Source of the DNA: a virus
DNA: 45,255 nt
IMG/VR virus record: IMGVR_UViG_3300028588_000003
Span: 1 to 45,255 of that record
Direction: 5' to 3' (one strand)
Shown one piece after another: positions 8,951 to 36,549 of this stretch. Position numbers and translations under genes: made by a program. The first letter of the stretch is position 1. Each line of letters opens with the position of its first letter. The notes below the pieces were generated by a model. The model saw nothing but the letters and a program-made list of their open reading frames with translations, had not been told where the DNA came from and ran no database searches.

Positions 8951-8967
8951 ATGCCCGAAGGAGAAAC

Positions 8968-11115: not shown

Positions 11116-11134
11116 ACCTCAGGTGGAGAAGATC

Positions 11135-14100
11135 ATGATCATCGGCGACATGGAAATCCGGCTGCGCGCCGATATCGCACGCCTGCAGCGCGACATGGAC
11201 TCGGCGCGCCAGGTGGTCGGCAACGCTACCGCTGGCATGGAGCGCGCCGCCAACGCGGCAAAAGCTGCTTTCGCCGGTATGGCCTCGGGCCTGGGCGGCC
11301 GCGAGATCATTCGAATGGCCGACGAATACACGAAATTTACCGCTCAGCTGAAACTGGCCACTCAGTCGCAGCGCGAGTACGCGCAGGCCTATGCTTCGGT
11401 CAAGAGCATCGCTACCGCTTCGCAGCAGGATTTGAGCGCCACTGGCATGCTGTACGCCCGGATCGCCAACGGCACGCGCGAGCTGGGGGTTAGCCAGAAG
11501 CAGGTAGCAGACATCACCAACACGGTCAACATGGCCCTGAAGGTATCGGGCGCCACCGCATCGGAATCCGCATCTGCTCAGCTGCAGTTATCCCAGGCGT
11601 TCGCCTCGGGCACGCTGCGCGGCGAGGAATTCAACGCCGTTAACGAAGCCGCGCCACGCCTCATGCAAGCGCTGGCAGATGGCATCGGCGTGCCCGTAGG
11701 CGCTCTCAAGAAAATGGCTGAAGAAGGCCAGATCACGTCCAAAATTATGTCGGACGTGCTGCCGAAGGCGTTGGCCGGCCTGCAGGAAGAGGCGAAGGAA
11801 GTCCAGACCATTGCTGGCGCCTTCACAGTTCTGAAGAACAACGCCATGGAGTTTGTAGGTGTGCAGGCCAATGCGAGTGGGGCAGTGTCCGCGCTGACGG
11901 GCGGCATTGGGCTACTTGCCGACAACCTCAACGTCGTAGCCGGTGCGATTGCGACCGTCACCGCAGCAAAGCTGAGCTCTTGGGCCGCTTCGTTCGTCAC
12001 CGATACCTATCGCCAGGTTGTTGCCACCAAGGAGCTGCAGGCCGCTACTCTTGCGCGCGCTGTGACCACGACGGAAGCGGCGGCACTGGCTGCCAATGCG
12101 AAGATGGCGGAAGCGCAGGCCGATGTGCGGGCGACAGCTGCGGCTGCAACCTTGGCTGGTGCGCGAGTGGCGGAGTTGCGTTCGGCCGTGCTGGCTGCTG
12201 ACGGCGCAGTGGCTCTCGCGATCGCGACCAACGGTCTGATCCCAGCGCAGGCCCGCGCGCTCGCGCTCGAAGAGGCTCGCACAATCGCCCTGGCAGGTCA
12301 GGCTGTCGCACAAAATGCGGCAACCGTGGCCGCGAACGCCTCGACTGCCGCTCTCGGCGCACAGGCCGCCGCTGCCACCGTCGGCGCCACTGCAATGGGC
12401 GGACTGCGCGCTGCGGTGGGCTTCCTTGGCGGCCCAATCGGCGCAATCGTAACGCTTCTCGGCGTCGGCGCGATGGCCTGGTCGCACTGGGGAAACTCGG
12501 CGAAGGAGGCGAACGACAAGACGGCGCAATCGGTTCAGGAAACCCATGACGAAGTGCTGTCCCGGCTGCAGAAGCAAATTGACAAGCTGAACGAACGTGC
12601 CGCCCTGGCCAAGGCTCAGCCGAACCTGAAGGTCGAGAACGCTGCTGACTTGGAGCGATTGGCATCCCTCTGGGCCGAGTACAACGACGCGAAAAACAAC
12701 ACTGGCAGGTTCGCAGGGGCGACCGCTGAATACCGTGGCGTCATGGAGCGTATCGCACTTCGCGAGCACGGCGAGCTGCTGCAGAAGTTGACCGCCATGC
12801 AGGCGGCGCAAACCGCTGCTGCCCAGAAAGGAGTTGATACTCGCGTCGCTGCCTTCATGAAGGAGAACGCCACCAAGAAGGAGCAGATGGCCGCCGAGCT
12901 CAAGGCCATCGAGGACCTGAAAGGTAAGACCGCCGAGTACGGCGAAATGGAGCGCCGCATTCGCGAGAAGTATGCCGACAAAGGTGCCGCAGCCGCCATC
13001 AAGCAAGAGGCCACCGCCTACCAGAATCTGATGACGTCCATCCGCGAGAAGGTCGCGGCCAACCAGCTGGAGCTGAGCGGCTACGACAAGCTGACCGAAT
13101 CGCAGAAGGCCACCATCAAGCTGGACGCCGAGATCAGCACCGGCAAGAACAAGCTGAGCGCCGATAGCATCAAGCTGGCGCGCGCGGAGATCGAGCGCCT
13201 GGAGGTGCAGGAGCAAGCGCTGGAGTTCCAGAAGCTGCGCGCGAAGGCGACCGAGACGGAATCCAAGGCATTTTCGGATTACCTCGACAAGCTGCGCGCC
13301 AGCACCTCGGCGGTTGAGGAGCGGATCGTCCAGATGCAGCGGGAAATCGACCTGCACGGCCTGTCCGCCGCTGCAGCCGTTGATGCCGAAAGGGCGAAGC
13401 TCGAGGCGAAGCTGGCCCTGGGCCCGGCGACGCATGCCGAGCTGATCGCACTGGACCAGCAGATCGAGAAGCTGGGTCAGCTCGCCGACCTGGTGCGCAA
13501 GAAGGAAACGCTGGACGCCAGCAAGAAGGCGACCGACCAGATCGTCGAGGACCAAAAGCGCATCTGGGGCGACATCGAGCGCACTGCGCACGATACCTTC
13601 ATCAGCATCTTCGATAGCGGAAAGTCGGCCTTCGACCGCCTGAAGGACGCGCTCAAGAACGGGCTGTACGAGCTGCTGTATCAGATGACGGTGAAGAAGT
13701 GGATCATCAACCTCCAGGCATCTTCCTCGGGCGGATCGCTCGTGCAGGCGCTGACGTCGTCGAGCTCCAGTGGCGCGGGCGGTTCCAGCATCTTCGGTAC
13801 GGCCTCGAACCTGTTCGAAGTGGGCAAGTCGATCTTCGGCGGGTTCAAGACTGGCCTGTCGTCCTACCTGGGTCAGGGCGTTTCGTACGTCGGTAACGCC
13901 GTCAACTCCAACGCCATGTTCAGCTTCGGCCAGGGCATGCAGGGCTTCAGCGCCGGCGGCGTGGGCAGCGGGATCAGCGGCGGTGCCGCCAGTGCTGGTG
14001 GCAGCTTCTCGTCGGCGCTGGGCGTCTCGGGCTGGGTTGCGGCCGGCATGGCCCTGGCGGATGGCTTGTTCAAGAAAGGCTTCAACGACACCAGCACGAT

Positions 14101-15847
14101 CCAGAAGAAGGACTACGTGCACCCGCTGGTCGCCGAGTCCTTGCTCTTCAACAAGGTTTTCCAGTCGCTGGGTATGTCGAGCAAGACGGCGAATCTGCTG
14201 TCGGGTGCGAGCATCGCGACCGCGCTGTTCGGCCGCAAGGCGCCGGAGATCGAGTCCCAGGGCATCCAGGGCACGTTCGGCGGCGCCGGCTTCTCGGGCC
14301 AAGCCTACGCCAACGTGGTCGAGAAAGGCGGCCTGTTCCGCAGCACGAAGCGCTACGTCTCGACCGGCAATCTGTCGGCTGACCAGGATGCAACCTTCGA
14401 CGCCACGTACAAGGCGCTGGTCGACGCGGCCAAGGGCTTCGCATCGACGCTGGGTATCGAGGCCAGCGTCATCGACGGCTACAACAAGCAGATCAAGCTC
14501 GAGCTCGGGAAGGACGAGGCGAAGAACCAGGAGGCGATCGCCAAGCTGTTCGGCGAGATCGGCGACGAACTGTCGCTGCGCCTGGTGCCGGGTCTGTCCA
14601 GCTTCGCCCTGGCCGGCGAGGCCACGAGCGCGACGCTGCAGCGCCTGGTGACCGACTACGCGACGGTCGACGAGGCGCTGACCGCCATCGGCACGCAGTT
14701 CGGTGCTGTCGGCGTGGCGTCGCTGGAAGCGCGCGAGCGCCTGCTGGCGGCGGCAGGTGGCCTGGAAGCATTCGCGGCAAACACCGCGGGCTTCCAGCAG
14801 AACTTCCTGAGCGAGGCGGAACGCAACGCGCCGGTGTTGAAAGCCGTGACGGAGCAGCTGGCAGCCCTGGGCCTGGCGGGCGTGGATACGCGCGACGAGT
14901 TCAAGCAGGTGGTGCTGGGGCTGGACCTGACGACTGATGCTGGCGCCAAGCAGTACGGCGCACTGATGAAGCTGCAGGCCGGCTTCGCCCAGGTGTATCC
15001 GGCGGTCGACCACGCAGCGATCGCAGCGCAGGCGCTGGCCGATGCCCAGGCGCGCGCCAACGAGGTGATGCGGGAGCGTGAGGAACTGCAGGATCGCCTC
15101 GACTCCATGCTGATGAGTACTGATCAGCTACGTGAAAAGGAAATCGCTAAGTACGACGAGACCAACAGGGCACTGTTGCACCAGATCTACGCTTACGAGG
15201 ACCAGAAAACGGCAGCGGAAAAGGCGTCCGAAGCATGGGACAAGGCTACGGCTGCGATCCAGGAGGCGCAGGAAAAAGCCGCCGCGTCGATTCGTGCGAT
15301 CGGCGATGCGTTCGCCGACTCGATCCAGCGTGCACGGGACGAAGCGAAGGCGCTGCGTGAGTTCGACGCAGCGCTGAAGCTGGGCGCCCTGTCCGCGCTG
15401 GATCCGGACGCTCGGTACCGAGCTGCCAAGTCGCAGTTCGAAACCGTCGGCGACACCCAGTCGATGCAGGCCTTCCTGCAGGCGTCGAAGGACCGTGGCG
15501 TGGACTCGTTCTACTACGAGCGGGATTTCGCGTCGGTGCAAAAGGCGCTGGCGGAATCGATCAAGGCTGCTGACGCCCGCCCCGCGGCGCTGGCCGGGCT
15601 TTACCAAGACATGGCGGGCTGGCTCAGCGCGCCGACGGCTTCCATTGCAGCGCCCACGCCTCCAGCGGTGCAGACCGGCAGCATGTCCGGCAGCTCGGCC
15701 CAGGTGAACAAAGGATTGGAGGACCAGATGGAAAAGATGATCGACCGGCTCGGCGTGCTGGAGAGGATTGCTGACAGCACCAGCCAGACCGCCTTCTACA
15801 TCGATCAGGTCACTGGTGGCGGGTCAGAAATGCGGGTGAAGGAATGA
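11135..15847 (+). CDS. Tape measure protein (about 1570 aa)
   Basis: Largest ORF in the window, Ala/Gln-rich coiled-coil composition, directly after the G/GT genes. GGAG RBS lies 6 nt before ATG 11135. Confidence 0.9.
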   Translation: MIIGDMEIRLRADIARLQRDMDSARQVVGNATAGMERAANAAKAAFAGMASGLGGREIIRMADEYTKFTAQLKLATQSQREYAQAYASVKSIATASQQDLSATGMLYARIANGTRELGVSQKQVADITNTVNMALKVSGATASESASAQLQLSQAFASGTLRGEEFNAVNEAAPRLMQALADGIGVPVGALKKMAEEGQITSKIMSDVLPKALAGLQEEAKEVQTIAGAFTVLKNNAMEFVGVQANASGAVSALTGGIGLLADNLNVVAGAIATVTAAKLSSWAASFVTDTYRQVVATKELQAATLARAVTTTEAAALAANAKMAEAQADVRATAAAATLAGARVAELRSAVLAADGAVALAIATNGLIPAQARALALEEARTIALAGQAVAQNAATVAANASTAALGAQAAAATVGATAMGGLRAAVGFLGGPIGAIVTLLGVGAMAWSHWGNSAKEANDKTAQSVQETHDEVLSRLQKQIDKLNERAALAKAQPNLKVENAADLERLASLWAEYNDAKNNTGRFAGATAEYRGVMERIALREHGELLQKLTAMQAAQTAAAQKGVDTRVAAFMKENATKKEQMAAELKAIEDLKGKTAEYGEMERRIREKYADKGAAAAIKQEATAYQNLMTSIREKVAANQLELSGYDKLTESQKATIKLDAEISTGKNKLSADSIKLARAEIERLEVQEQALEFQKLRAKATETESKAFSDYLDKLRASTSAVEERIVQMQREIDLHGLSAAAAVDAERAKLEAKLALGPATHAELIALDQQIEKLGQLADLVRKKETLDASKKATDQIVEDQKRIWGDIERTAHDTFISIFDSGKSAFDRLKDALKNGLYELLYQMTVKKWIINLQASSSGGSLVQALTSSSSSGAGGSSIFGTASNLFEVGKSIFGGFKTGLSSYLGQGVSYVGNAVNSNAMFSFGQGMQGFSAGGVGSGISGGAASAGGSFSSALGVSGWVAAGMALADGLFKKGFNDTSTIQKKDYVHPLVAESLLFNKVFQSLGMSSKTANLLSGASIATALFGRKAPEIESQGIQGTFGGAGFSGQAYANVVEKGGLFRSTKRYVSTGNLSADQDATFDATYKALVDAAKGFASTLGIEASVIDGYNKQIKLELGKDEAKNQEAIAKLFGEIGDELSLRLVPGLSSFALAGEATSATLQRLVTDYATVDEALTAIGTQFGAVGVASLEARERLLAAAGGLEAFAANTAGFQQNFLSEAERNAPVLKAVTEQLAALGLAGVDTRDEFKQVVLGLDLTTDAGAKQYGALMKLQAGFAQVYPAVDHAAIAAQALADAQARANEVMREREELQDRLDSMLMSTDQLREKEIAKYDETNRALLHQIYAYEDQKTAAEKASEAWDKATAAIQEAQEKAAASIRAIGDAFADSIQRARDEAKALREFDAALKLGALSALDPDARYRAAKSQFETVGDTQSMQAFLQASKDRGVDSFYYERDFASVQKALAESIKAADARPAALAGLYQDMAGWLSAPTASIAAPTPPAVQTGSMSGSSAQVNKGLEDQMEKMIDRLGVLERIADSTSQTAFYIDQVTGGGSEMRVKE

Positions 15848-16758
15848 CGGCACCGGTCAGCTTTATCCGACCGCTCACAATCGTTCCGAGCATGATCACC
15901 AGTACCACGGCGGTGACGAAGTTGCCGGCCGAAGGCGAGTGGAGTGCGATGGGCACCTACACCAAGGGCCAAGTCGTCTTCCGCACAGCAGTCGGGCGAC
16001 GCTTCGAGAACAAGATTCCCGGCATGAACGGGAATCTGCCCGAGGAGGACAGGGAGCGCTGGTACGACCTCGGCGCCACTGACCAGACGACGATGTTCGA
16101 TGCTGAGGTCAGCTCCGAATCGATCGCTCCCGACGTCCTAACGACGGTGTTTCGCCCTGGTGCGTTCAATGCGGGGTGGCTGCTCAAACTAACCGGCACA
16201 TCATTGACTTTCACCGTCAAGGACGCACCAGGTGGGGCGACGGTGTTCACCGAGACGATTTCACTGGAGGACTCTCAACCAGACGACTACTGGGAGCATT
16301 TATTCGATCCATACAGACCAAGGACGGAATATCTGGTCACCGGTCTGGAGCCCTACATGAGCTGCGAGGTGACCGTTTCGATAGCGTTCCCTGGCAGTGT
16401 GGCGCGGTGCGGCATGGCCTCCCTGGGTGACTTGGTTTCCGTCGGCGGCCTGGCACTCACGGGCGCCACTGCCGAACCGAAGTCGTACTCGCGAATCGTG
16501 ACGGACGAGCGAGGAAAGACCAGTATCGAGACAGGTAAATCAGCGCTCGACCTCACGGGCAGTTGCCTCGTCGCTCTGGATGTCGCGGACACTGTGGTCG
16601 ATGCGCTGCGGTCCACCCTTGGGGTTCCGTGCCCCTGGATTCTCACTGACTCGCAGAACATGCGGTCCTTACGTGGCTTCGGGCTAGGAACCTTCAAGCT
16701 GACTTACGACACCACCGACAAGGCTCGCCTTTCGTACAACATTTCAGGAATGATCTGA
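15844..16758 (+). CDS. Minor/distal tail protein (304 aa)
   Basis: ATGA-coupled to the tape-measure gene. Assignment is by position only. Confidence 0.55.
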   Translation: MTAPVSFIRPLTIVPSMITSTTAVTKLPAEGEWSAMGTYTKGQVVFRTAVGRRFENKIPGMNGNLPEEDRERWYDLGATDQTTMFDAEVSSESIAPDVLTTVFRPGAFNAGWLLKLTGTSLTFTVKDAPGGATVFTETISLEDSQPDDYWEHLFDPYRPRTEYLVTGLEPYMSCEVTVSIAFPGSVARCGMASLGDLVSVGGLALTGATAEPKSYSRIVTDERGKTSIETGKSALDLTGSCLVALDVADTVVDALRSTLGVPCPWILTDSQNMRSLRGFGLGTFKLTYDTTDKARLSYNISGMI

Positions 16759-17441
16759 TGCCGACCACACCACCCACCATCAGCGCCGCACCAGCAGCGC
16801 CGCAACGCGGCGTAAAGGCCACTTTCTCGGCCCGCGTCGACGCCTTCGTCACCTGGCTGGTTGCAGCGGTCGGGCAATTCGCTGCGCTGGCCACCAACGT
16901 CTACAACAACGCGGTCGAGACATTCAACAATGCGACCACGGCCAGCACGGCGGCCAGCACGGCAACCAGTGCCGCAGCCGCAGCAGTGGCCACCGCAAAC
17001 GCCACCTTGTGGGTCAGCGGCCAGTCCGTTGCACAGGATGCGAACAAGATCAGCCCGCTCGATCGCCAGACGTACCGGCGCAAGACGGCATCGGGTGCGG
17101 GCACCACTGACCCGGCGCTGGACACGACGAATTATGTTCCGCTCCTACCGTTGACTAGGTCGTTCACATCGGCAGAGCAGCTCGTTACGTCATCGGGGAA
17201 TCTGACGATTGCGCACGGCTTGGGTGCGATTCCGAAGTATCTACTCCCATCCGTCCGGGACGCTTCGAGTGGCGCAGTTTTCTACCCCGGCCCCGCGCTC
17301 GATACCGCTGGTGGATCTACGGTCGGGTGCGTTTTGTCAGCAGATAGCACAAATATTTATGTCTATTGTGGCACTGCTAGCTCAGCGTTTTATGGGATGA
17401 CCAACGCTAATGCACGACTCACCGTGAGGGCCTACGTATGA
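16758..17441 (+). CDS. Tail fibre-like protein (227 aa)
   Basis: The N-terminus PQRGVKATFSARVDAFVTWL...NNAVETFNNATTASTAASTATSAAAAA matches the common fibre N-terminal anchor pattern, judged by eye. Confidence 0.55.
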   Translation: MPTTPPTISAAPAAPQRGVKATFSARVDAFVTWLVAAVGQFAALATNVYNNAVETFNNATTASTAASTATSAAAAAVATANATLWVSGQSVAQDANKISPLDRQTYRRKTASGAGTTDPALDTTNYVPLLPLTRSFTSAEQLVTSSGNLTIAHGLGAIPKYLLPSVRDASSGAVFYPGPALDTAGGSTVGCVLSADSTNIYVYCGTASSAFYGMTNANARLTVRAYV

Positions 17442-17932
17442 CCCAGTATTTCGTGAATGAGCAGGGCCGCTACATCGGCGGTTTCGACGGCGCAGAGCCG
17501 CCAGAGGGTGCAATCGAAGTACCCCATCCGCCGGCAGACGCGCGCATGGTGTGGGATGGCGAGCAGTTCGGCGTGGATCTGATGGGCCTGATAGCGTCGA
17601 AGAACACCGAGATCAACGCCTGGCGCGCGGCTGCGAACCTGTCCATGTTCCCGCACGCCGGCAAGCACATCGCCTGCGACGAGCTGTCCCGCTCCGATAT
17701 CGACGGCGTGGCCAACAACATCGCCCTCTTCGGCGAGTTCCCCGCCGGCTTCCCCGGCGCGTGGCGCGCGACGGACAACACGATGATCCCGCTGCCGGAC
17801 GTCGATGCCTTCCGCGCCATGTACGCCTCGATGACCGCCCAGGGCACCGAGAACTTCAACCACTCGCAGGAACTGAAAGCGCAGCTGGCTGCCGCCAGCA
17901 CGCCGGACGAGATCGCGGCAATCCAATGGTGA
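17438..17932 (+). CDS. DUF4376-like protein (fibre-associated)
   Basis: ...KNTEINAWRAAAN...GAWRATDNTMIPL...AASTPDEIAAIQW pattern. ATGA-coupled to the fibre gene. Confidence 0.55.
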   Translation: MTQYFVNEQGRYIGGFDGAEPPEGAIEVPHPPADARMVWDGEQFGVDLMGLIASKNTEINAWRAAANLSMFPHAGKHIACDELSRSDIDGVANNIALFGEFPAGFPGAWRATDNTMIPLPDVDAFRAMYASMTAQGTENFNHSQELKAQLAAASTPDEIAAIQW

Positions 17933-17936
17933 TGAC

Positions 17937-18401
17937 ATGCAAGTAGCCTTCTACAAAAGCACGCGTCCCGGCATCGCCGGCATCTACAACCGCCTGGTCG
18001 CTTGGTGGTCGAAATCTCGGTATTCGCACGTCGAGCTGATCGTGTCGACCGGCCGCGCCTGGTCGGCATCCTTCGAAGACGGCGGCGTGCGCAGCAAGCT
18101 GATCGACTTCGACCCGGAGAAGTGGGACCTGGTCGACGTGCCGGTGCACCTCGAGCCGGCGGCCGTGGACTGGTTCACCGCGCACCGCGGCGAAAAGTAC
18201 GACCTGCGCGGCAACCTGCAGTTCGTCATCGCGGCTGCCGGACACAGCGAGAAGCGCTGGTTCTGCTCCGAAGCCGTCGCGGCCGCGCTCGGCATTCCGG
18301 ATCCGTGGCGCTACGACCCGGGCACGCTGGCCAGCGCGCTCACCCTCCTGACCCGACCCGCTCCTGCGGGTTTTTTTACGCCTACCGAAAGGCCCATGTG
18401 A
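17937..18401 (+). CDS. Permuted papain-like (NlpC/P60 or YiiX/C92-like) peptidase candidate
   Basis: His-before-Cys order: YSHVELIV, then WFCSEAVAAALG. Lies next to the lysis genes. Confidence 0.5.
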   Translation: MQVAFYKSTRPGIAGIYNRLVAWWSKSRYSHVELIVSTGRAWSASFEDGGVRSKLIDFDPEKWDLVDVPVHLEPAAVDWFTAHRGEKYDLRGNLQFVIAAAGHSEKRWFCSEAVAAALGIPDPWRYDPGTLASALTLLTRPAPAGFFTPTERPM

Positions 18402-18745
18402 GCCCAATTTCCCAACAAGACGCCATGCGAATCGGCGGCCAGCAGCTGGTCCAGCTGCTCAACGAGGTGCGCGACAACCAGCTGGGCATGATGGCGAACT
18501 TCGACACCCTCTCGAAGAAAATGGCCGAGGTTCAGGCGTCGAATGATCGCTTGCTTTCCGGCTTTCCAGCCAACGACGTCGAGGGCCACCGCCGTTACCA
18601 CGAGTCCGTGATCGAGTGGCGTGAGCTGCGCAACAAGCTCGTGCGTGAAGCCCTGATCAAGATCGCCAGCGCAAGCGCCCTCGGCGCAGCCGGCTGGCTG
18701 CTGCTGACCATCTGGCAGTCCTTCAAGATGACGGTGCAGCGATGA
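18398..18745 (+). CDS. Membrane protein with C-terminal TM helix (lysis-cassette member, holin/antiholin candidate)
   Basis: GTG 18398 overlaps the upstream stop; ATG 18425 is an alternative start. The C-terminal segment ALGAAGWLLLTIWQSF is hydrophobic. Confidence 0.5.
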   Translation: MSPISQQDAMRIGGQQLVQLLNEVRDNQLGMMANFDTLSKKMAEVQASNDRLLSGFPANDVEGHRRYHESVIEWRELRNKLVREALIKIASASALGAAGWLLLTIWQSFKMTVQR

Positions 18746-19239
18746 GCCCGCTGCGTTTGCTGAACCTGGCCATCGTGCCGGCGCTGGCCGAGCTGGCACG
18801 CTGCGGGATCCCGGACACGATCGACGCCCGGCGCTTCCTGCTGGCGATCGCGCTGCAGGAATCCGGCCTGGCCCACCGGCGTCAGGTCGTCGCCGGCGGC
18901 GCCGAGAGCGGCCCGGCCGCGTCGTTCTGGCAGTTCGAACAGGGTGGCGGCTGCAAAGGTGTGCTGACGCACTACAGAGTGGCGCCTACCATGCGCACCC
19001 TGTGCGCCGACTTCAACGTCCAGCCGACCCCGGCAGGGCTGTGGGAGGCGATGCGCTACCAGGACACCGTCGCCGCGATCGCCGCGCGCCTGCTGCTCTA
19101 CACCCTGCCGTCGAAGCTGGCCACTACCGCCTGCGCCGGCTGGGCTCAATACCTCGCCGCCTGGCGCCCAGGCAGACCGCACCCCAACACCTGGTCCGCA
19201 AACTGGGACCTAGCCACCCTCACCGTAGGAGCGAAATAA
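18742..19239 (+). CDS. Lytic transglycosylase (SLT-type) endolysin
   Basis: Catalytic-Glu context LLAIALQESGLAHRRQ, and lysis-cassette position. Confidence 0.75.
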   Translation: MSPLRLLNLAIVPALAELARCGIPDTIDARRFLLAIALQESGLAHRRQVVAGGAESGPAASFWQFEQGGGCKGVLTHYRVAPTMRTLCADFNVQPTPAGLWEAMRYQDTVAAIAARLLLYTLPSKLATTACAGWAQYLAAWRPGRPHPNTWSANWDLATLTVGAK

Positions 19240-19766
19240 TGGCACCTCTTATCGCCGCCGGCCTATCCCTGGCCGCCAAGTACGCGCCAGACGTCATCCG
19301 GCACTTCTCGAACAACGACACCGCGGCGACCGTCGCCGGCCAGGTGATCGGCATCGCTCAGACTGTGACCGGCACGAAAACGCCCGAGGCGGCTGACCAG
19401 GCGCTGGCCCTGAACCCCGAGCTGGCGATGCAGTTCCAGATGGCGGTGATGGCCAGCGACGCCGACCTGGTGAAAGCTTATCTGGGCGACACGCAAAGCG
19501 CCCGCGCGCGCGACGTCGACCTGGCGAAGGCTGGCATCGTCAACTACCGGGCGAATGTGATGGCGAGCGCCGCGCTGCTGCTGGTTCTCCTGTGCTTGGC
19601 GGTGGTGATCTGGAATTCCGACGCTAACGAGTTCGCGAAGGCCACGATCAGCCTGATCCTAGGCCGCGCCCTGGGCTGGGTCGAGCAGCTGTTCTCCTTC
19701 GAGTTCGGCACGACGCGTGCGAGTAAGGCGAAGGACGATACGATCAACCGGCTGTCGGGGAGCTGA
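19239..19766 (+). CDS. Holin, 3TM (GTA-holin-like) family candidate
   Basis: N-terminus MAPLIAAGLSLAAKYAPDVI, DTQSARARD motif, hydrophobic AALLLVLLCLAVVIW. ATG overlaps the endolysin stop. Confidence 0.55.
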   Translation: MAPLIAAGLSLAAKYAPDVIRHFSNNDTAATVAGQVIGIAQTVTGTKTPEAADQALALNPELAMQFQMAVMASDADLVKAYLGDTQSARARDVDLAKAGIVNYRANVMASAALLLVLLCLAVVIWNSDANEFAKATISLILGRALGWVEQLFSFEFGTTRASKAKDDTINRLSGS

Positions 19767-20839: not shown

Positions 20840-20912
20840 CGATAATATACAGTAGTCCGTTTTCGACTGATTTGCGGGGCAGCGTCCGACCTTTTGCGTC
20901 CGATATTATCGG
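20840..20912. repeat. Putative integrase arm-type sites, P' arm (CGATAATATACAG at 20840-20852; palindrome CCGATATTATCGG at 20900-20912)
   Basis: Direct repeat of the 20683-20695 motif, plus a 13-bp palindrome overlapping the integrase stop codon. Confidence 0.55.
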
Positions 20913-22051
20913 GCTTTCCAGGGCAGTTTCATGTCGATCGCGGACGTCGTCGGCACCGCTTCCTTGATGTAGATTTCCGATGTCTTGCTGCTCGTGTGCA
21001 CGAGACGATTCTGGATTTCTGCCATCGTCTTCCCTTGCTTCGCCGCGTCCGTGGCGCCCAGCGCCCGTAGATCCTTGAACTGGATCATTGCGCCGAACTC
21101 CCTGCCTTCCTCCTTCGCCGCTGCGACTGCGCGCTCGCGAGCTCGATCCCACATCGTAATCAGCCCCGTCCTTGCATAGGGCGTCCCTTTTCGTGTCGGA
21201 AACAAGTACGGGCTGATCAGCTTCCTGGAGCGCTTCAGGGCGCGTGCGCGCTCGATGACCTCGCGGATCTCCGCGGTGATCGTGATATCCACCTGCAGGC
21301 CACTGCTCTTCTTCGTCTTCGACGGCTTCAGGCTGATGCGACCGCCGCCGCCCGGCAGGTCTTCGATCTGGGCTTCCTTGAGCGTCCGGATATCGACCGC
21401 GCGCGCCCACAGCAGGTAAGTCATGTCCACGATGCACGCGAACATCGGGCCGCTCTGCGTAGGCTTTCCGTCGACACCCACGAAACCCGCCGCACGAATT
21501 GCCGCGACCTGGTCGTGCGTGGCCAGCACCTCGCGCCGGCTCACCTCGAATTCGCCCAGGTCGATCTGGTCCATCGGATTGTCCTGGCGCAGGCCCAGCA
21601 CGCCGATCGCGTATCGGAACAGCTTCCCCAGCAGCGCGCTGTACTTGCGAGCGGTGTTTGCCTTGTCCGCGAAGTTATTGCGGAGGAAGTCCGCACATGC
21701 CTTCGTGGTCACCTGGGCGACCGTGAAGGCCTCGAAGTCGTCCGCGATCACATCCAGGAACCGCGTGTACTGGTCCTGCGTCTCCTGCGTGTACTTGCCC
21801 AGCTTCTTGGCCTTGAATTCCGCACACAGGTGCACCATCGTCCCCTCGGTCGCGAGCTTGTCGCTCTTGAGCACCGAGAGCGCCGACAGCATGGCGGCCT
21901 CGCCCTCTTCGACGCTGGCCAGGCGGATCCAGAACTTCATCTTGCCGTCGGCCGGGTCGCGGATCTTCTCGGGCGCCATGAATTTGTAGGCGCCGTCCTT
22001 GATATAGACCCGGGCCGGCAGGCCGCGCCCGGTCTTTCGTTTTCGATTCAT
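20906..22051 (-). CDS. int: Tyrosine integrase
   Basis: 381 aa from MNRKRKTGRGLP. The C-terminal catalytic region FKDLRALGATDAAKQG...LVHTSSKTSEIYIKE has the H..Y box. Adjacent to the tRNA-derived att core. Confidence 0.88.
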   Translation of the reverse strand: MNRKRKTGRGLPARVYIKDGAYKFMAPEKIRDPADGKMKFWIRLASVEEGEAAMLSALSVLKSDKLATEGTMVHLCAEFKAKKLGKYTQETQDQYTRFLDVIADDFEAFTVAQVTTKACADFLRNNFADKANTARKYSALLGKLFRYAIGVLGLRQDNPMDQIDLGEFEVSRREVLATHDQVAAIRAAGFVGVDGKPTQSGPMFACIVDMTYLLWARAVDIRTLKEAQIEDLPGGGGRISLKPSKTKKSSGLQVDITITAEIREVIERARALKRSRKLISPYLFPTRKGTPYARTGLITMWDRARERAVAAAKEEGREFGAMIQFKDLRALGATDAAKQGKTMAEIQNRLVHTSSKTSEIYIKEAVPTTSAIDMKLPWKAR

Positions 22052-24100: not shown

Positions 24101-25903
24101 TCAGCAACCCGGCATCGTCAGCGCCAGCGCGACGTTCCGCACCCAGATCGGCGTAGCGCTGAGCACGAAGGTCTCGCCACCCCACGCCAGCAGCAGCGTC
24201 GTACCCATCACCTCCGCGATCGCGGTCGCCGCATCCGGCGGCACCAGGTTGCCGATATGTTCGCGCCACACGCTGTCGCTTGCGCCGTCCAGCAGCAGGT
24301 ATTCCTCGGGTTCGATCAGCGACTGCAGTGCGGCCAGCTCGAGCGTGGTGAACGGCCGGTGCCAAGTGCCGTCCAGCGCGCGGATGATCGCGACGGTCTT
24401 CTGGTCCAGCGCCGGCAGCGCGCGCGGGTCGGCGACCGACCAGCGGCCGTTGTCCTGGCGCGCGGCCGCGCTCACGGCGCCGCTCGGCGAATCCCAGGGC
24501 ACCACCCCGTAATGCCCGCCGCCGAAGAACGCGTCACCGGCGCCGCGGTTCCCATTCAGGCTGGAGCGCGGGTCCGCGACGGCGAACGCGCCCTGGCCCG
24601 TGGTGCTGGCGCCGATCACGGTGCCAGCCGCTTGGTCGAACGGCGTGACCAGGTACTTGCCGGCGCCATCGAATGCGCTGGTCGACCGTGGGTCGGCCAC
24701 GCCGTACGCGCCCGAGTCGTCACCACCAATGACTGTGCCGGTGCGGCGATCCCATCTGGTGATCGCGTACTTACCAAACAGGTCGCGCGCCGGTGGACGC
24801 GGATCCTGAACCGCGAATGTCCCCTGCCCTGGACTTTTCACGTTGATGACCGCCCCCATGGACTCGTCCCAGCCGCAAAGGCCATACTGTCCGCAGTCGT
24901 ACTTGCCTGAGTCGAAGCGTGGGTCGGCCACCGAAAAGTTTCCGTTCATCGGCATGCCGCGGCTGGTGATGGTTCCGATCGGCTCCTCCCACTCGTTCAC
25001 GCCCAGCACGCCGCGGTGCATATCGGGCACGATCAGGTAGTCGCGAAGGTGCCCGTTCTCCACCGCCAGTCGGTTCAGGCTGCGCCAGTCGCTACCGGCC
25101 TCGACAAATGCCAGGCGCACCCAGGTCTTCCACTGCAAGCGCGGAATGCGGTGCATCGGGCCGCCGGCCTGGTCCCCAGGGAACGGCATGCGACCGAGCA
25201 CGTCGCCGACGGCGCGCAGGCGCTTCTTCTCCGGTTCGTACAGGAACGGCGGAACCTTCTCGGCGTGGCGTGCCACCAGCAGGAAGCGCTTGCGCGACTG
25301 GGCCAGGCCGCCCAACTCACCGCAGTCGTGGGTGGTCTCGGCCACCGCGTAGCCGAAGCGCTGCAGCAGCAGGGTGATCTGGTCCAGCAGGTGCCGGCCG
25401 CGCGACGCCAGGCGGGGCACGTTCTCGAACACGATCAGGTCGACCGGGTCGTCGGCCCAGGCTTCGGCCATCAGCCAGATGCAACGCAGCGTCAGCTCGT
25501 TGAGCGCCTGGTACTTCGCCGTCTGGCTCTTCTTCTCCGAGAGCAGGCCGGACGCGCCTTTGCACGGGCTGCTGATGAACACGATGTTCGGGCGCTCGTT
25601 GCCGGCGGCGCGCCGGATATCGGAGGGGCCCATTTCGCGCCAGTCGGCCGGCGGTTCCTTTCCGTGGAAGGCAGTGTGCTGTTCGCGGCTGAACAGGTCC
25701 ATCACGGTGCCAGGCACGCCAGCAATGCGGTTGAAGTCGCGGATCGCTGCAGGCGACACGTCGACGCCGCCCAGGCAGCGGAAACGTGCGGCGACGGCGC
25801 CGACACGCGGATTCGCCTTGTTGAAGCCTTTGGCGCCGCCGCCGATACCGCAGCAGAAGTGGAAGTGGGTGACCTCGCGGGTCAGGGTTGCGTCACGCGG
25901 CAT
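24101..25903 (-). CDS. DNA (cytosine-5)-methyltransferase with expanded repeat-containing variable region
   Basis: Motif I FCCGIGGG, motif IV SSPCKGAS, motif VI FENVPRL, motif X GNLVPP. AAGGAA RBS before ATG 25903. Confidence 0.85.
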   Translation of the reverse strand: MPRDATLTREVTHFHFCCGIGGGAKGFNKANPRVGAVAARFRCLGGVDVSPAAIRDFNRIAGVPGTVMDLFSREQHTAFHGKEPPADWREMGPSDIRRAAGNERPNIVFISSPCKGASGLLSEKKSQTAKYQALNELTLRCIWLMAEAWADDPVDLIVFENVPRLASRGRHLLDQITLLLQRFGYAVAETTHDCGELGGLAQSRKRFLLVARHAEKVPPFLYEPEKKRLRAVGDVLGRMPFPGDQAGGPMHRIPRLQWKTWVRLAFVEAGSDWRSLNRLAVENGHLRDYLIVPDMHRGVLGVNEWEEPIGTITSRGMPMNGNFSVADPRFDSGKYDCGQYGLCGWDESMGAVINVKSPGQGTFAVQDPRPPARDLFGKYAITRWDRRTGTVIGGDDSGAYGVADPRSTSAFDGAGKYLVTPFDQAAGTVIGASTTGQGAFAVADPRSSLNGNRGAGDAFFGGGHYGVVPWDSPSGAVSAAARQDNGRWSVADPRALPALDQKTVAIIRALDGTWHRPFTTLELAALQSLIEPEEYLLLDGASDSVWREHIGNLVPPDAATAIAEVMGTTLLLAWGGETFVLSATPIWVRNVALALTMPGC

Positions 25904-32692: not shown

Positions 32693-33040
32693 TCAGGCCG
32701 CCTTCGCGTCGATCGCGCGCTCGATGCGCTGCTCGTCCTGGGATTCCTTGCGGCGGCGGGCACCGGCCGCCATCTCGTTGCGCGCCTGGTGCTCGCCCTG
32801 GTCGAGGGCCAGCTGCTGCAACAGCGTGAGGAAGGCGTTCTTGCCCTGCGCGGTCTCGCGGATCAGCGCGGCCAGCGCCTGGTCGTCGCCGAGGAAGGTG
32901 CCCAGGTCTTCGATCATCACGGCGGTGTTCAGGCGGCTGCCGGCCTTGAGCGCGAGCAGGATCACGTGCGCCTTCTCGCGGGTCAGGCGGTCAAGCTCAG
33001 CTTGGTGTTGCAGGTCGTCGGTAGGGTCGTGCAGGGCCAT
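32693..33040 (-). CDS. Hypothetical protein (115 aa), first gene of the leftward early operon
   Basis: First ORF downstream of the PL-like promoter. Confidence 0.55.
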   Translation of the reverse strand: MALHDPTDDLQHQAELDRLTREKAHVILLALKAGSRLNTAVMIEDLGTFLGDDQALAALIRETAQGKNAFLTLLQQLALDQGEHQARNEMAAGARRRKESQDEQRIERAIDAKAA

Positions 33041-33088
33041 GGTGGTCTCCAGTCGGCGGCTCGGGTTGAGCTCGTTTCGATGGAGATA

Positions 33089-33117
33089 ATTTTAGGCATA
33101 CCTAAAGACAAAGGCAA
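33089..33117 (-). promoter_or_regulatory. PL-like early leftward promoter (TTGCCT-17-TAAAAT)
   Basis: The minus strand reads TTGCCT (33117-33112), a 17-nt spacer, then TAAAAT (33094-33089). An operator copy overlaps the spacer and -10. Confidence 0.65.
33092..33105. promoter_or_regulatory. Operator OL-a, TTAGGCATACCTAA
   Basis: TTAGG-N4-CCTAA dyad, same family as the sites at 36475-36546. Confidence 0.65.
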
Positions 33118-33126
33118 GAACTATTT

Positions 33127-33140
33127 TTAGGCATGGCTAA
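33127..33140. promoter_or_regulatory. Operator OL-b, TTAGGCATGGCTAA (one arm mismatch)
   Basis: 13/14 match to the perfect palindrome at 36533-36546. Confidence 0.55.
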
Positions 33141-33235
33141 TTTTGGTACACTGTAGTCTCCCTGCTTGGACATCGAGCGAGCGGCGCCGGCGCACAGGCG
33201 CAAAAAGCCCGCTCGTGGCGGGCATGGAGGATGGG

Positions 33236-33748
33236 ATGGAACAGGTAGATTTGGGCAACGCCCAAGGTAGTGGCGTTATCGACCCTTGGAAACTGCCGCG
33301 TCCTTGGGAGTTGCGCGAGCGGGGCGACGTGAAACGGAACCTGCGCGAGGCGCGAGTCTGGGGGCGATACATCGCTCGGAGTTACGACCGAGGCTGCACA
33401 GGCTTCGACGGTGCTCTGTTGCTAGATCTAATCGAGCGCGCCAGGGTAGATCTTGAGTGGTTACGGATTTATGGAGGAAAGGTCGATGACGAAGCTCGCC
33501 AGCGTGCGCATATTAAGATTCAGGAGCAGCTGAGCGCCGCCGAAATAGGTGTCACCCGGCTTCTGGGCATTCCTTGCGAATTCGGGCAATATAGTCTTCG
33601 AAATAAGCCTTTGACCCATCCAATGTTCGCCACCATTCCGCCTTTAACGGGTCTGTATCGACGCGCATTCGAAAGTCAGCAGATGCCCGCTGAAGCGCCC
33701 ACCCAAGAAAACGGGCGGGACCAGTCGACGGTACCTTCCGACCATTAA
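33236..33748 (+). CDS. Hypothetical protein (170 aa from ATG 33236)
   Basis: GGAGGA RBS before ATG 33236. The N-terminal two thirds look protein-like. The 3' 197 nt overlap a convergent ORF. Confidence 0.45.
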   Translation: MEQVDLGNAQGSGVIDPWKLPRPWELRERGDVKRNLREARVWGRYIARSYDRGCTGFDGALLLDLIERARVDLEWLRIYGGKVDDEARQRAHIKIQEQLSAAEIGVTRLLGIPCEFGQYSLRNKPLTHPMFATIPPLTGLYRRAFESQQMPAEAPTQENGRDQSTVPSDH

Positions 33749-33920
33749 TCCTGCAGGATGAGTTGGCGGTTTTGATGTCGTTCTTGAGCTCGGTCGTTGC
33801 CGCAACCAGTTGGTCCGTGCCAGCACTTCCTGGCCGGTCGGCGAGCATCAGCTCGATTCGGTTGCGAAAGCTCTCCATTACCTCCCGCGCCCAAATAGCC
33901 TCTTCGATTATCTCGTCCAT
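33552..33920 (-). CDS. Hypothetical protein (122 aa)
   Basis: Protein-like sequence throughout (MDEIIEEAIWAREVMESFRNRIELML...AEWWRTLDGSKAYFEDYIARIRKE). No clear SD. Overlaps the 3' end of 33236..33748. Confidence 0.5.
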   Translation of the reverse strand: MDEIIEEAIWAREVMESFRNRIELMLADRPGSAGTDQLVAATTELKNDIKTANSSCRINGRKVPSTGPARFLGWALQRASADFRMRVDTDPLKAEWWRTLDGSKAYFEDYIARIRKECPEAG

Positions 33921-34029
33921 TTTTCAGTCAACCTGTGGCGAATCCTGGTTTATTCTCATCCATTGAGCGCATCCTCGAATCGCGCTAGACTGTCCGCAGC
34001 ACAGTAATCCCCTCCAAATCAAGGAAAAA

Positions 34030-34545
34030 ATGAAAGAGCTACTCGATTACATTGAAAATGAAGCACGGGTAAATGCCGCCTTTCACATTGCCAATGCTGA
34101 CAGCCTAACGAAAGAAAGTAATACCCTGCTCAATTTGCTGCTTGCGGGCGCGGGCGGCGCCTTAGCCCTTCTCGTGTCCCTACTCCAGAAGACCACACCC
34201 GCTCCGACGTGGCAATTGTGGGCAGTCGGCGCAGCCGCGGTCTACCTGTTTGCACTGGCCGGACTGGTTGTCCGCAAGTGCCTGTGGGTTCAAGACATCT
34301 GGCCGCCAGCGAACGATCCACGAAATTTTCCGCTGACGGGGTATTCGCTAGACCAGATCCGGCAATTTGACCTGGAGAACAAGCAGCGGTGCTGCGACAG
34401 CAACCGACTCCGAAATGAAGGCGTCGGAATATGGCTCAACCGCTGTCGCTCCCTGGCAGCTGCAACGCCGCTCGTTACCGCTTTGGTGGCGTTGGCTGCG
34501 GCTGTGGTTGCGGCCGGGGGTCTGGCTGCCTATTGGGCTGGTTGA
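34030..34545 (+). CDS. Three-TM membrane protein (171 aa)
   Basis: AAGGAAAAA RBS. Soluble N-terminal helix, two closely spaced TM helices (LLNLLLAGAGGALALLVSLL and WQLWAVGAAAVYLFALAGLVV), a ~75-aa loop, then a C-terminal TM. Confidence 0.65.
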   Translation: MKELLDYIENEARVNAAFHIANADSLTKESNTLLNLLLAGAGGALALLVSLLQKTTPAPTWQLWAVGAAAVYLFALAGLVVRKCLWVQDIWPPANDPRNFPLTGYSLDQIRQFDLENKQRCCDSNRLRNEGVGIWLNRCRSLAAATPLVTALVALAAAVVAAGGLAAYWAG

Positions 34546-34681
34546 ATGGCTCTTCGCTCCGTCGGCCTGGCTGCGGCATTGGAATGGGATTATTCATTTC
34601 AGTAAGCATATTCTTCGTCTCCGTGCGGCATCCAGGCGTGCCGCGTCACCGTTAATCATCATCCTGCGGCAAATCGAGGTA

Positions 34682-35434
34682 TCACATTGAAAGCGATTTT
34701 TCAATAAATGGTTTAAATCCCCGATATACCTTAGTGCGCCTGAAGCGACAAGCACTTTCGGAAGCAATACTTTCTTTACAGGAGGGGGTTATTTTCACGA
34801 TCTCGACAGTCCCAGCGCGCGGCATTTTTATAACTGCTATTCCCAGCTTTCCATCGTCCGTCGGGTTATATGTTTCAATAATCGTGTCCGTTGCGACCTG
34901 GATCTTCTGATCGGCATTCTCGCGCACGTAGATCTGTGCTAACGCAAATACCTTATTGCATGTAGCCTTGTCATTACAGATAACGACAGAACTTTCCGCA
35001 GCCTCTATCTCTGCAGATATTTCCCGAAGTCGCTCAACCCTTTCTCGCTCGCGTTTCGCTGCGGCCAGTTCTTCCTCACGTGCTAACGCCGCATTCTTTA
35101 GATCGTTTTGACGTATCCATTCGGCCGCGAGTCGGTCTCGAGCCGCTTGGGATATGATGCCGCCCTCTGGCACGTCCACTATTCTGCCATCGACAACGTT
35201 AAATTCGATCGCTCCGTATTGGGTGCCATCGTAAGCACGGATATTCCCAGGGCGCCACACCACTTTGCCGGCGTGTCGATGAGTAGGTTGCATTCCCAGC
35301 AGCGCACTCGCTTCTTCGACTGACATGCCGTTTGTAACTAAATTGGCTTTTTCGCGCGCACCCTTAAAAGCTTGCGAAGCACAGCCGGTCAACATAGTCG
35401 AAGCAATGATAAGAATGGTCAGAAGTTTTTTCAT
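34682..35434 (-). CDS. Lipoprotein with BamE/SmpA-OmlA-like N-domain, coiled coil and Cys-containing C-domain
   Basis: Signal peptide MKKLLTILIIASTMLTG|C with an LTGC lipobox. GMSVEEASALLGMQP...VVWRPGN...IEFNVVDGRIV resembles BamE. An alternative start at 35452 adds 6 aa. Confidence 0.7.
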   Translation of the reverse strand: MKKLLTILIIASTMLTGCASQAFKGAREKANLVTNGMSVEEASALLGMQPTHRHAGKVVWRPGNIRAYDGTQYGAIEFNVVDGRIVDVPEGGIISQAARDRLAAEWIRQNDLKNAALAREEELAAAKRERERVERLREISAEIEAAESSVVICNDKATCNKVFALAQIYVRENADQKIQVATDTIIETYNPTDDGKLGIAVIKMPRAGTVEIVKITPSCKESIASESACRFRRTKVYRGFKPFIEKSLSM

Positions 35435-35470
35435 TATTTTCCAGTTCGGCATCTTGGCGTTCCGCAGCGC

Positions 35471-35740
35471 CTAGAATGGTAATTCTGGCTCGCTTGGTTC
35501 AGGTAGCGTCGACCATTCCACTTCATCCAGGGCTAAAAGCGCAAATAGATACGCGTCTGCTTCAAATTGAGCCTTCGCCTGAACCCCTTTTAGTGAAGTT
35601 TCATTGCGCGCTACCAGCATCACAGGAAGGGCTAATTGCATTTGCAAGCGCACGATCAGCTGGTCGTCATGCAGCTGACCTCCCTCTACCAAAACAACCG
35701 CCATTCGAACCCCGCGAAGGCGCAATACGGAATAACGCAT
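35471..35740 (-). CDS. Small protein abutting the cI stop codon (89 aa), acidic C-terminus ...PEPSEPELPF
   Basis: ATG 35740-35738 abuts the cI stop codon (35743-35741). Same strand as cI and the lipoprotein gene. Confidence 0.55.
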   Translation of the reverse strand: MRYSVLRLRGVRMAVVLVEGGQLHDDQLIVRLQMQLALPVMLVARNETSLKGVQAKAQFEADAYLFALLALDEVEWSTLPEPSEPELPF

Positions 35741-36475
35741 CTACAGACGTTCGCTTTCTTTCCGCACAATCCGCCCGATTACGATGCAGGCCTCGCCACG
35801 GCAGGTCTTACGCCCATACTTTCGCTGATCGTGATTATCCGACTTCAGATACCACTGGCCGCCGTCACGCTCCAGACGCTTTACGACCGGCTCACCCTCG
35901 TAGTTGACGGCGTACACGTAGCCGTCGACCATCTTTTTGTCGGCCGTATTGATAACGACCAGGTCGCCTTCGTATAACGTCGGCTCCATGCTCTCGCCCT
36001 TCACTACGATCGAGATCAGGTTGTCCTTGTAGTAGCCGTTTCGCATCATCCAGTCGGCTGGGACTGTCGTCGTCGATCCGTCATACCGCTCAGGCTCGAC
36101 TTCGAACCCGCTGATGCCGGCCGAGAGCCGCAATCGCACTTTCGGAATGCGCACAAGGCTCGGATCGTCGTCATCGACAACGCGGACCTTGCGGAACGTA
36201 CCTGGCGGCAGCCCGAAGTTACCATCTGGTCCAGGATCTGCTGGCGGGGGCGGCGGCGCCTCCTCGCCATGCAGTAGCCACCCTGGCGTTACGTCGAGCA
36301 CCTGGCATACCTTCGTCAGGTTGATGCCCGAAAGCTCCTTGATGCCGCCATCCCCAACGCTCTTCTCCCAGTCGGTAACCGTCGGGTTCGAGACGCCGAT
36401 AGCTTTCGCGAATCCGGTCTTGTTCAGGCCTTTGTCGAGGCGTGCCGACTTCAATCTTTGTTTCCATTCTTCCAT
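35741..36475 (-). CDS. cI: cI/LexA-type repressor (XRE HTH + S24 peptidase domain)
   Basis: HTH segment LNKTGFAKAIGVSNPTVTDWEKS. S24 Ser and Lys in VKGESMEPTLYEGDLVV and EPVVKRLERDGG. Divergent from the cro-like gene across the operator region. Confidence 0.88.
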   Translation of the reverse strand: MEEWKQRLKSARLDKGLNKTGFAKAIGVSNPTVTDWEKSVGDGGIKELSGINLTKVCQVLDVTPGWLLHGEEAPPPPPADPGPDGNFGLPPGTFRKVRVVDDDDPSLVRIPKVRLRLSAGISGFEVEPERYDGSTTTVPADWMMRNGYYKDNLISIVVKGESMEPTLYEGDLVVINTADKKMVDGYVYAVNYEGEPVVKRLERDGGQWYLKSDNHDQRKYGRKTCRGEACIVIGRIVRKESERL

Positions 36476-36499: not shown

Positions 36500-36513
36500 T
36501 TCGGCATACCTAA
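36500..36513. promoter_or_regulatory. Operator OR-b, TTCGGCATACCTAA (one arm mismatch)
   Basis: 13/14 match to OL-a. Confidence 0.55.
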
Positions 36514-36520
36514 AAATACC

Positions 36521-36549
36521 TTGCGTTTGATCTTAGGCATGCCTAAAAT
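36521..36549 (+). promoter_or_regulatory. PR-like early rightward promoter (TTGCGT-17-TAAAAT)
   Basis: TTGCGT at 36521-36526, a 17-nt spacer, TAAAAT at 36544-36549. Same architecture as the PL-like promoter. Confidence 0.65.
36533..36546. promoter_or_regulatory. Operator OR-c, TTAGGCATGCCTAA (perfect 14-bp palindrome)
   Basis: Overlaps the spacer and -10 of the PR-like promoter. Confidence 0.7.

Follow-up and report, generated by a model that had tools for sequence, protein, structure and literature searches.

The DNA analysed here, referred to as the window, is the 45,255-nucleotide (nt) stretch that makes up positions 1 to 45,255 of IMG/VR virus record IMGVR_UViG_3300028588_000003; it is a complete lambda-like phage genome, and our subject is the ~2.6-kb island (33143-35740) between its leftward operator and promoter (OL/PL) and its repressor gene, cI. 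We consider it likely that this region is a hotspot of moron accretion, in which three unrelated and independent cargo units (a lipoprotein gene, the membrane-protein gene TM171 and the convergent gene pair orf122/orf170) stand in tandem between a conserved gene pair, cI-orf89, and OL/PL. A moron slot as such is a known and expected phenomenon; the gene families found in this one are uncharacterised. The features of the slot are as follows, with protein lengths in amino acids (aa).

33089 to 33141, minus strand: OL/PL, the left anchor of the slot
33207 to 33223, minus strand: predicted intrinsic terminator, GCCCGC-loop-GCGGGC followed by UUUUU (terminator scan)
33236 to 33748, plus strand: orf170, 170 aa, soluble, with Shine-Dalgarno sequence GGAGGA
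33552 to 33920, minus strand (the cI strand): orf122, 122 aa, helical
33552 to 33748, both strands: 3' overlap of orf122 and orf170, 197 nt
33963 to 33991, plus strand: candidate TM171 promoter, TTGAGC, 17-nt spacer, TAGACT, matching 8 of 12 consensus positions
34021 to 34025: ribosome-binding site of TM171, AAGGA
34030 to 34545, plus strand: TM171, 171 aa, convergent with the cI operon
34682 to 35434, minus strand: lipoprotein, 250 aa, lipobox L-T-G-C
35471 to 35740, minus strand: orf89, 89 aa, its ATG directly after the TAG of cI (TAGATG)
35741 to 36475, minus strand: cI repressor (HTH_3 and Peptidase_S24), the right anchor of the slot
About 36500 to 36545: rightward operator (OR), TTAGGCATRCCTAA twice, between cI and the cro-like gene (read from the sequence)

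Variability of the slot among related phages

About 40 related loci were compared. One phage among them, L015/L016, is of the same immunity type as the window (96% aa identity in cI, 96% in cro and 79% in cII). At the DNA level the window and L015 are homologous from cII through cro to the cI stop codon (89.5% identity), across orf89 (74.6%) and across OL/PL (85.8%, at L015 7117-7221), and they are unrelated between these blocks. A single gene of 236 aa stands in L015 where the window has four genes, and cI and orf89 are separated by an inserted gene whose 335-aa product has a Bro-N domain and matches the PADLOC candidate PDC-S13 (E = 8e-104). This gene, located at 4990-5997 in L015 and at 1324-2331 in L016, breaks the usual stop/start coupling between cI and orf89.

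The same variability is seen among the 33 loci that carry orf89 (29 IMG/VR contigs together with L002, L015, L017 and the window), in which the stretch downstream of orf89 holds about 180 open reading frames (ORFs) that form 143 clusters, none of them present in more than four loci. The slot is hypervariable, and its cargo units, which are under purifying selection, are inherited independently of one another: the lipoprotein is found in L002 and L035, TM171 in L008-L013 and L028-L030, and orf122/orf170 in L027 and L060-L063, and these parts never travel together. An earlier note on this DNA, made from the sequence alone, had anticipated a hotspot of variation between conserved cI and OL, and both the L015 breakpoints and the survey of 33 loci bear this out, with orf89 added to the conserved flank; the note had also taken the island for a single module, which these contexts contradict.

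Few of the passing genes can be named. None of 99 slot cargo ORFs of related phages matches PADLOC at 1e-5, and all the Pfam matches obtained were to RecT (two ORFs), DUF2513, serine recombinase, Rap1a, DUF7694, Adhesin_E and alpha-hel2. Related slots (L031-L059, alignment A4) carry a Rap1a immunity protein of the type VI secretion system (T6SS) and an Adhesin_E-type lipoprotein; there are hints that the slot also carries genes of interbacterial competition or adhesion.

orf89, a conserved gene coupled to the repressor

The small ORF that begins at the cI stop codon had been counted among the contents of the island. Its position is as described, but we found that orf89 is a conserved backbone gene of the immunity operon and not cargo. 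The family comprises about 29 clusters, mostly of 88-92 aa and conserved from residue 1; conservation of residues 1-12 across 26 homologs supports the start that gives a product of 89 aa. The gene is translationally coupled to cI, and in about 24 of the 33 loci the stop codon of an S24 repressor gene overlaps or abuts the orf89 start (TAATG or TGATG). Its ratio of nonsynonymous to synonymous substitution rates (dN/dS) against L015 is 0.056.

The AlphaFold model of orf89 is a small alpha/beta domain (predicted local distance difference test, pLDDT, 81) with a low-confidence tail (pLDDT 58). A Foldseek search of this model against PDB gave no structural neighbour (best E = 0.15), nor was there a match to any PDB sequence. 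A DinI-like or ImmA-like role was considered and rejected, as there is no Pfam or fold match and no HExxH motif.

The acidic tail of the window protein ends in EPELPF, coded at 35471-35488, and a C-terminal tip of the form E-x-E-[LMVF]-P-F is present in about 24 of the 33 orf89 homologs, with homologs in L015, L017 and L031-L050. This tip was counted 31 times in the 4,269 six-frame ORFs drawn from all loci, in each case in an orf89 homolog. The C-terminal hexapeptide DDDIPF (SSB-Ct) of SSB, a protein that binds single-stranded DNA, docks onto many genome-maintenance proteins (PMC5872125). The orf89 family is similar to it in its acidic tip, free C-terminal Phe and flexible tail, but orf89 is not an OB-fold SSB, and the likeness is a resemblance only. 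orf89 could be an unrecognised lysogeny factor, an SSB-tail mimic that docks onto host partner proteins of SSB, such as RecO or RecQ, and tunes RecA-dependent induction.

The lipoprotein unit

The lipobox of the lipoprotein is followed by Ala at position +2; its cysteine, C18, is invariant in 49 homologs, and LPAM_1 matches 22 of these 49 family members. Four Cys residues of the C-terminal domain are likewise invariant, and we infer that they form two disulfides. The AlphaFold model (pLDDT 95.4) has an alpha-beta-beta-beta N-terminal domain, a linking helix of about 50 residues (96-148) and a beta-alpha-beta4-alpha C-terminal domain of the helix-grip type. The fold matches in PDB found by Foldseek are weak, with Flpp3 the best (E = 8e-4), followed by BamC, KA1 and START/helix-grip domains; against BFVD there were none below 1e-3. 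The earlier note had described a lipoprotein with an LTGC lipobox and a BamE-like domain. The lipobox stands; as for BamE, Pfam PF04355 gives weak matches in nine of the 49 homologs (best E = 2.4e-4), the gathering threshold was not reached, and the window protein itself has no match.

The lipoprotein has about 80 full-length homologs. All eight matches in named genomes are chromosomal and belong to Massilia or Pseudoduganella, with synteny conserved in two species groups; in Massilia sp. YIM B02763 the homolog adjoins an aryl-polyene-like cluster. Phage copies are found in this slot only, in the window, in L002 (78% identity) and in L035 (52%), and in the latter two the gene lies downstream of cI-orf89 and is not accompanied by TM171. 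The lipoprotein is a cellular gene captured from a Massilia-group chromosomal family. Its proportions of nonsynonymous and synonymous differences (pN 0.14, pS 0.8) show that it is under purifying selection.

The C-terminal domain also occurs elsewhere. It alone matches phrog_16082 (E = 4e-15), and by tblastn it has a counterpart in two E. coli phages, a hypothetical protein of 130 aa. In one of these, Escherichia phage vB_EcoS-689R5 (ON470583.1; L026 3890-4282), the 130-aa protein with the helix-grip domain is 33% identical and its gene is flanked by genes annotated 'host killer protein' and 'toxin to Rem'. The domain is mobile, since it is also present in proteins of about 300 aa (P0081-P0093) that bear Pfam PF07603.

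A gap of 36 nt, free of terminators, separates the lipoprotein gene from orf89, so that co-transcription with cI is the simplest reading; in the lysogen the PRM/cI transcript is the most likely source of the lipoprotein. The arrangement of cI, orf89 and lipoprotein gene accordingly reads as one leftward unit, as the earlier note had supposed. With its LTGC lipobox and its gene downstream of cI-orf89 in three phages, the lipoprotein has in common with the exclusion lipoproteins Cor, Llp and Ltp that it is a lipobox protein coded in a lysogeny module. Homology to Cor, Llp or Ltp was not found, the sole match being that of the signal peptide to a Cor PHROG (E = 0.041, residues 7-27).

These findings bear on the strongest alternative, namely that the cargo serves lysogenic conversion unrelated to phages, the lipoprotein having a BamE/BamC-like role in the envelope and the other genes serving host fitness or interbacterial competition. 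The family's synteny on Massilia chromosomes and the resemblance of its domains to BamE and to the BamC/Flpp3 helix-grip fold speak for this explanation, as do the Rap1a and Adhesin_E proteins in the slots of other phages and the lack of PADLOC matches among slot ORFs. Against it, the lipoproteins and small membrane proteins that prophages encode in their lysogeny modules are known as classic factors of exclusion (PMC3952083, PMC10883804), and the defence candidates PDC-S13 and PDC-M53 lie in or beside equivalent slots. As an account of the cargo as a whole we hold it to be a possibility of some standing, and not the one we would choose.

The solitary membrane protein TM171

Hydropathy analysis agrees with the earlier description of a convergent protein with three transmembrane (TM) segments, which it places at residues 33-51, 63-81 and 148-166. 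After TM2 comes a conserved 61-residue loop, rich in Arg and Lys and so probably cytoplasmic. The TM171 family has 36 members of 154-202 aa; dN/dS for TM171 is 0.07. The candidate promoter of TM171 sits in a 109-nt divergent intergenic region; at 8 of 12 positions it lies below the promoter scanner's threshold of 9 of 12 and was read from the sequence by eye.

In L008-L013 and L028-L030 the gene is solitary, and in the relatives' contexts surveyed it was never found with the lipoprotein, orf122 or orf170. In L008 and L009 a homolog lies beside an integrase gene and the PADLOC candidate pair PDC-M53A/B (E = 9e-56 and 2e-61); here (L009 2011-3570, L008 6920-7873) it is divergent to PDC-M53A/B and outside PADLOC's definition of that system. 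In L010-L012 TM171 is within an early or partition region, and in L013 it is convergent with, and immediately past, a cI that is 55% identical.

PycTM is a family of three-TM proteins (bioRxiv 10.64898/2026.08.12.744502) that acts together with the cyclase PycC (PMC11224242). TM171 could be a cyclase-less, stand-alone relative of PycTM that provides single-gene prophage defence. Stated in full, this explanation makes TM171 a remote PycTM (pJV1-SpdB3) effector that permeabilises the inner membrane, an abortive infection system that lacks its own cyclase and is triggered by a cyclic nucleotide made in trans or by a phage cue sensed by the cytoplasmic loop. Among 29 TM171 family members, PADLOC's PycTM models PDLC02364 and PDLC02365 match nine (best E = 6e-4) and eight, respectively, the E values running from 6e-4 to 1, and no other membrane-effector model recurs. 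The matches are collinear, with residues 13-86 of the protein aligned to positions 6-74 of a 160-position profile; the proteins agree in size (155-171 aa, against about 160 aa for PycTM) and in having three TM segments, and PDC-M53 neighbours one family member. These matches are, however, sub-threshold and limited to the N-terminal half of the profile (the N-terminal helix and TM1-TM2), and hydrophobic helices inflate such scores. The window's own TM171 has no PycTM match at E ≤ 1, the Pfam PycTM model matches one of the 29 members (E = 0.05), and no cyclase domain was found among the neighbours of TM171 in the window or in L008-L013, nor an adjacent cyclase in any distinct context examined. 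We therefore think a PycTM-type effector rather unlikely. By architecture and solitary habit TM171 resembles the SieA protein of phage P22 equally well.

The overlapping pair orf122/orf170

The earlier note had listed a convergent, overlapping ORF pair at 33236-33920, and homologs and codon-position bias indicate that both ORFs are real genes. The pair is conserved in six contigs: wherever orf122 has a homolog in L027 and L060-L063 (49-70% identity), a homolog of orf170 (56-63%) converges on it and overlaps its 3' end by 146-197 nt, and neither the lipoprotein nor TM171 is present. In L060-L063 the pair lies downstream of a cI-like gene, in L062 after cI-orf89. orf122 matches phrog_35260 (E = 3e-7) and has homologs of the same length; its dN/dS against L027 is 0.31. 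orf170, whose last ~25 residues are variable, has no match in Pfam, PHROGs, PADLOC or PDB. Two candidates were rejected: that orf170 is a spurious antisense ORF, in view of its conserved homologs and third-position-biased substitutions, and, on comparison, that a 122-aa gene of L015 is an orf122 homolog.

Compared with L027, the window has 77% nucleotide identity in the overlap, as against 53-54% in the unique part of each gene, and in these unique parts substitutions favour third codon positions. The overlap is coding on both strands and under dual-coding constraint. As the genes converge with a 3' overlap, their mRNAs are mutually antisense over at least 197 nt, and a leftward transcript that ended at the predicted terminator (33223-33207) would first run antisense through all of orf170. 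A possible extended -10 element, TGgTACACT, lies at 33144-33152, directed rightward to orf170 and 3 nt past the OL operator at 33127-33141; if it is real, orf170 would be repressed by cI.

Two further families of small proteins recur near the pair. One is a membrane protein beginning MKFFGILIL (L060 2953-3330, L062 3468-3995, L063 3007-3432), with a zinc-ribbon-like CxxC tail in the L062 and L063 copies, and the other is a 178-184-aa protein beginning MP[KR]IQCPTCKS (L061 2851-3387, L062 4804-5358, L063 4241-4795). Both may be additional partners of orf122/orf170.

One possible identity of orf122/orf170 is that of a new pair for defence or addiction, dual-coded and under antisense transcription control. 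In its most specific form, this explanation is of a self-regulating toxin-antitoxin or abortive-infection pair whose transcripts repress each other through their antisense overlap. The maintenance of the two genes as a unit in all six contigs and the elevated identity of the overlap are in its favour, as are the constant location of orf122 on the cI strand and the abutment of the orf170 5' region, with its possible extended -10, on OL. Dual-coding constraint alone, however, explains the conservation of the overlap and leaves regulation at the RNA level unneeded, and neither protein has homology to known toxins or antitoxins in Pfam, NCBIfam, PADLOC or PDB sequences. We hold such a self-regulating pair to be doubtful.

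Genome context and transcription of the island

The remaining landmarks of the genome are as follows.

575 to 19766, plus strand: structural genes
20906 to 22051, minus strand: tyrosine integrase, from which leftward early genes reach 33040
Right end of the window, beyond cII: replication genes and terminase

Past cI, the plus strand carries a cro-like gene and then a cII (CP76) gene. The map order is integrase, leftward early genes, OL/PL, island, cI, cro, cII, and because of this order the earlier description of the island as standing in the rexAB-equivalent position is accurate. Operators and promoter agree with it: the palindrome TTAGGCATRCCTAA was read at 33092-33106 and 33127-33141 (OL), and a promoter scan gave a PL-like promoter on the minus strand, with its -35 element at 33117 and its -10 element ending at 33089. 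The sole canonical terminator that the scan found in the island, at 33223-33207, has a folding free energy of -16.7 kcal/mol (z = -2.0), and would be expected from its sequence to end leftward transcription of the island just before PL. A bidirectional terminator was sought between the lipoprotein and TM171 genes, where the fold is no better than that of shuffled sequence.

The presence of five ORFs in a stretch of lower GC between OL and cI, as the earlier note had reported, was reproduced: in 500-nt windows GC is 0.49-0.58 over 33001-35500 and about 0.60-0.77, or about 0.65 as a single figure, elsewhere. The dip is not confined to the island: across cI and cro, as far as 37000, GC stays at 0.54-0.58.

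Pfam, PHROGs, PADLOC and NCBIfam place none of the five island proteins in a family whose function is known, which matches the earlier observation that no ORF has a standard phage function. Nor did PDB sequences yield a meaningful match to the profile of any of the five families. DNA queries with the island or the whole window found no close relative in INPHARED (50,697 deposited phage genomes), tblastn of TM171, orf89 and orf170 against deposited phages gave no matches, and nothing was found by scanning named genomes with cI or by single-protein scans of IMG/VR with the lipoprotein, TM171 and orf170. The Logan metagenome contig L001 was rejected as an independent context because it is the same phage. 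The only sizeable nucleotide match of 24001-45255 to deposited phages covers ~870 nt (about 24996-25868) and is to a gene for a DNA cytosine methyltransferase in Pseudomonas phages (phiCTX, H66 and others), with 78-80% identity. The phage probably infects Massilia or one of its relatives within the Oxalobacteraceae.

Overall reading

In our reading of the region as a moron hotspot, the cargo would be expressed in the lysogen and would benefit the lysogen at the cell envelope. The lipoprotein would be produced from the PRM/cI transcript and exported to the periplasm or outer membrane, a location that Ala at +2 and the four invariant Cys residues support. TM171 would act as a solitary three-TM protein of the inner membrane, with its own ribosome-binding site and candidate promoter, and orf122/orf170 as a convergent unit with mutually antisense mRNAs. 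Our best guess is that the lipoprotein (Ltp/Cor-like) and TM171 (SieA-like) would each alone alter or block the entry of other phages; as an alternative to blocked entry, TM171 may be a membrane-damaging effector.

Position, the typicality of envelope proteins as exclusion factors, the faint PycTM signal and the nearby PDC-S13 and PDC-M53 make an anti-phage role plausible, and we put the chances that at least one unit is anti-phage at about even. A host-fitness role for the captured lipoprotein fits the data equally well. That the slot holds at least one truly new system (TM171, orf122/orf170 or orf89) seems to us improbable, though not markedly so. The proposal of the earlier note that the island is a superinfection-exclusion or abortive-infection candidate is thus sustained in part, by PDC-S13 in the L015 slot, and weakened by the lack of any known defence family among the 99 related slot ORFs.

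Several points weigh against our reading. Co-transcription with cI is deduced from spacing and the lack of a terminator alone, and the candidate TM171 promoter agrees with only 8 of 12 consensus positions. No cargo protein falls in a family of known function in PADLOC, Pfam or PHROGs, and the PADLOC result for related slots is equally blank; the 'defence' flavour comes from one PDC-S13 and one PDC-M53 neighbour. The many cellular orthologs of the lipoprotein suit host physiology as well as exclusion, and the similarity to PycTM is weak and covers half of the profile.

Two other explanations fare worse. According to the first, the whole 2.6 kb is one multi-gene exclusion or abortive-infection system in which a sensor, a three-TM effector and a lipoprotein cooperate like RexA and RexB. 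The rexAB position, tight packing, shared lower GC and lack of standard phage functions would fit such a system; however, its components are never together outside the window, each of them occurs in several phages that lack the rest, and orf89 is conserved whatever the cargo. The context survey has already largely refuted this explanation, which we regard as very unlikely. The second, that the island is decaying, non-functional DNA with chance or remnant ORFs, draws on the lower GC and the lack of database annotation and is refuted by the conservation data, as every one of the five ORFs has homologs over its full length and shows strong purifying selection or a bias by codon position, and the lipoprotein model is very confident (pLDDT 95).

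The slot is a well-anchored, hypervariable and repressor-side location in a poorly studied group, the temperate phages of Oxalobacteraceae. Some 140 distinct gene families pass through it, almost none of them annotated, and it is a practical hunting ground for new prophage genes of exclusion, defence or conversion. It offers three candidates for testing, i.e. the PycTM-like TM171, the dual-coded orf122/orf170 and the repressor-coupled orf89 with its SSB-tail-like tip.

Comparison with known systems

In lambda, rexA and rexB lie between OL/PL and cI and are co-transcribed with cI from PRM. The island has the same map position and the same orientation relative to cI, and its cargo is likely to be lysogen-expressed; it differs in consisting of three unrelated units and one backbone gene instead of a two-gene sensor plus channel. 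No island protein matches Rex-named families in Pfam, PHROGs or PADLOC at E ≤ 0.1.

The lysogeny module of Streptococcus thermophilus phage TP-J34 comprises crh (repressor), orf3 and ltp, which codes for an exclusion lipoprotein (PMC3952083). The order of repressor, small partner gene and lipoprotein gene on the lysogenic strand is the same in the window, but there is no relationship in sequence or fold. In addition, our phage has a Gram-negative host, orf89 lacks a metalloprotease motif, and the lipoprotein is a protein of 250 aa with cellular orthologs.

With BamE, BamC and Flpp3 the lipoprotein shares a lipobox, an alpha-beta-beta-beta N-terminal domain and a helix-grip C-terminal domain, for which Flpp3 and BamC are the top Foldseek matches. 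These matches are weak, however (E = 8e-4 to 8e-3, target-normalised TM-score 0.34-0.45), and the three-part architecture with its 50-residue helix has no described counterpart.

SieA of P22 prevents the injection of DNA; it is a solitary inner-membrane protein of 162-164 aa for which three TM segments are predicted (PMC10883804). TM171 has no detectable homology to it, and the motif FxRYPxEAxxFNK is absent from its sequence; it is similar to SieA in that a solitary prophage gene codes for it and that its 171 residues include three predicted TM segments and a conserved, probably cytoplasmic segment.

The closest parallel to the region as a whole is given by morons such as HK97 gp15, reviewed in 'The moron comes of age' (PMC3594210). 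The lipoprotein unit departs from these in that it probably rides on the cI transcript, and the control elements seen for the cargo comprise the weak candidate promoter of TM171 and the one terminator at 33223-33207. In other respects the likeness is close: the cargo genes are atypical in composition, they form independent units in a lysogeny-expressed region, and they are present or absent between otherwise homologous phages, as the L015 breakpoints and the 33 loci demonstrate.

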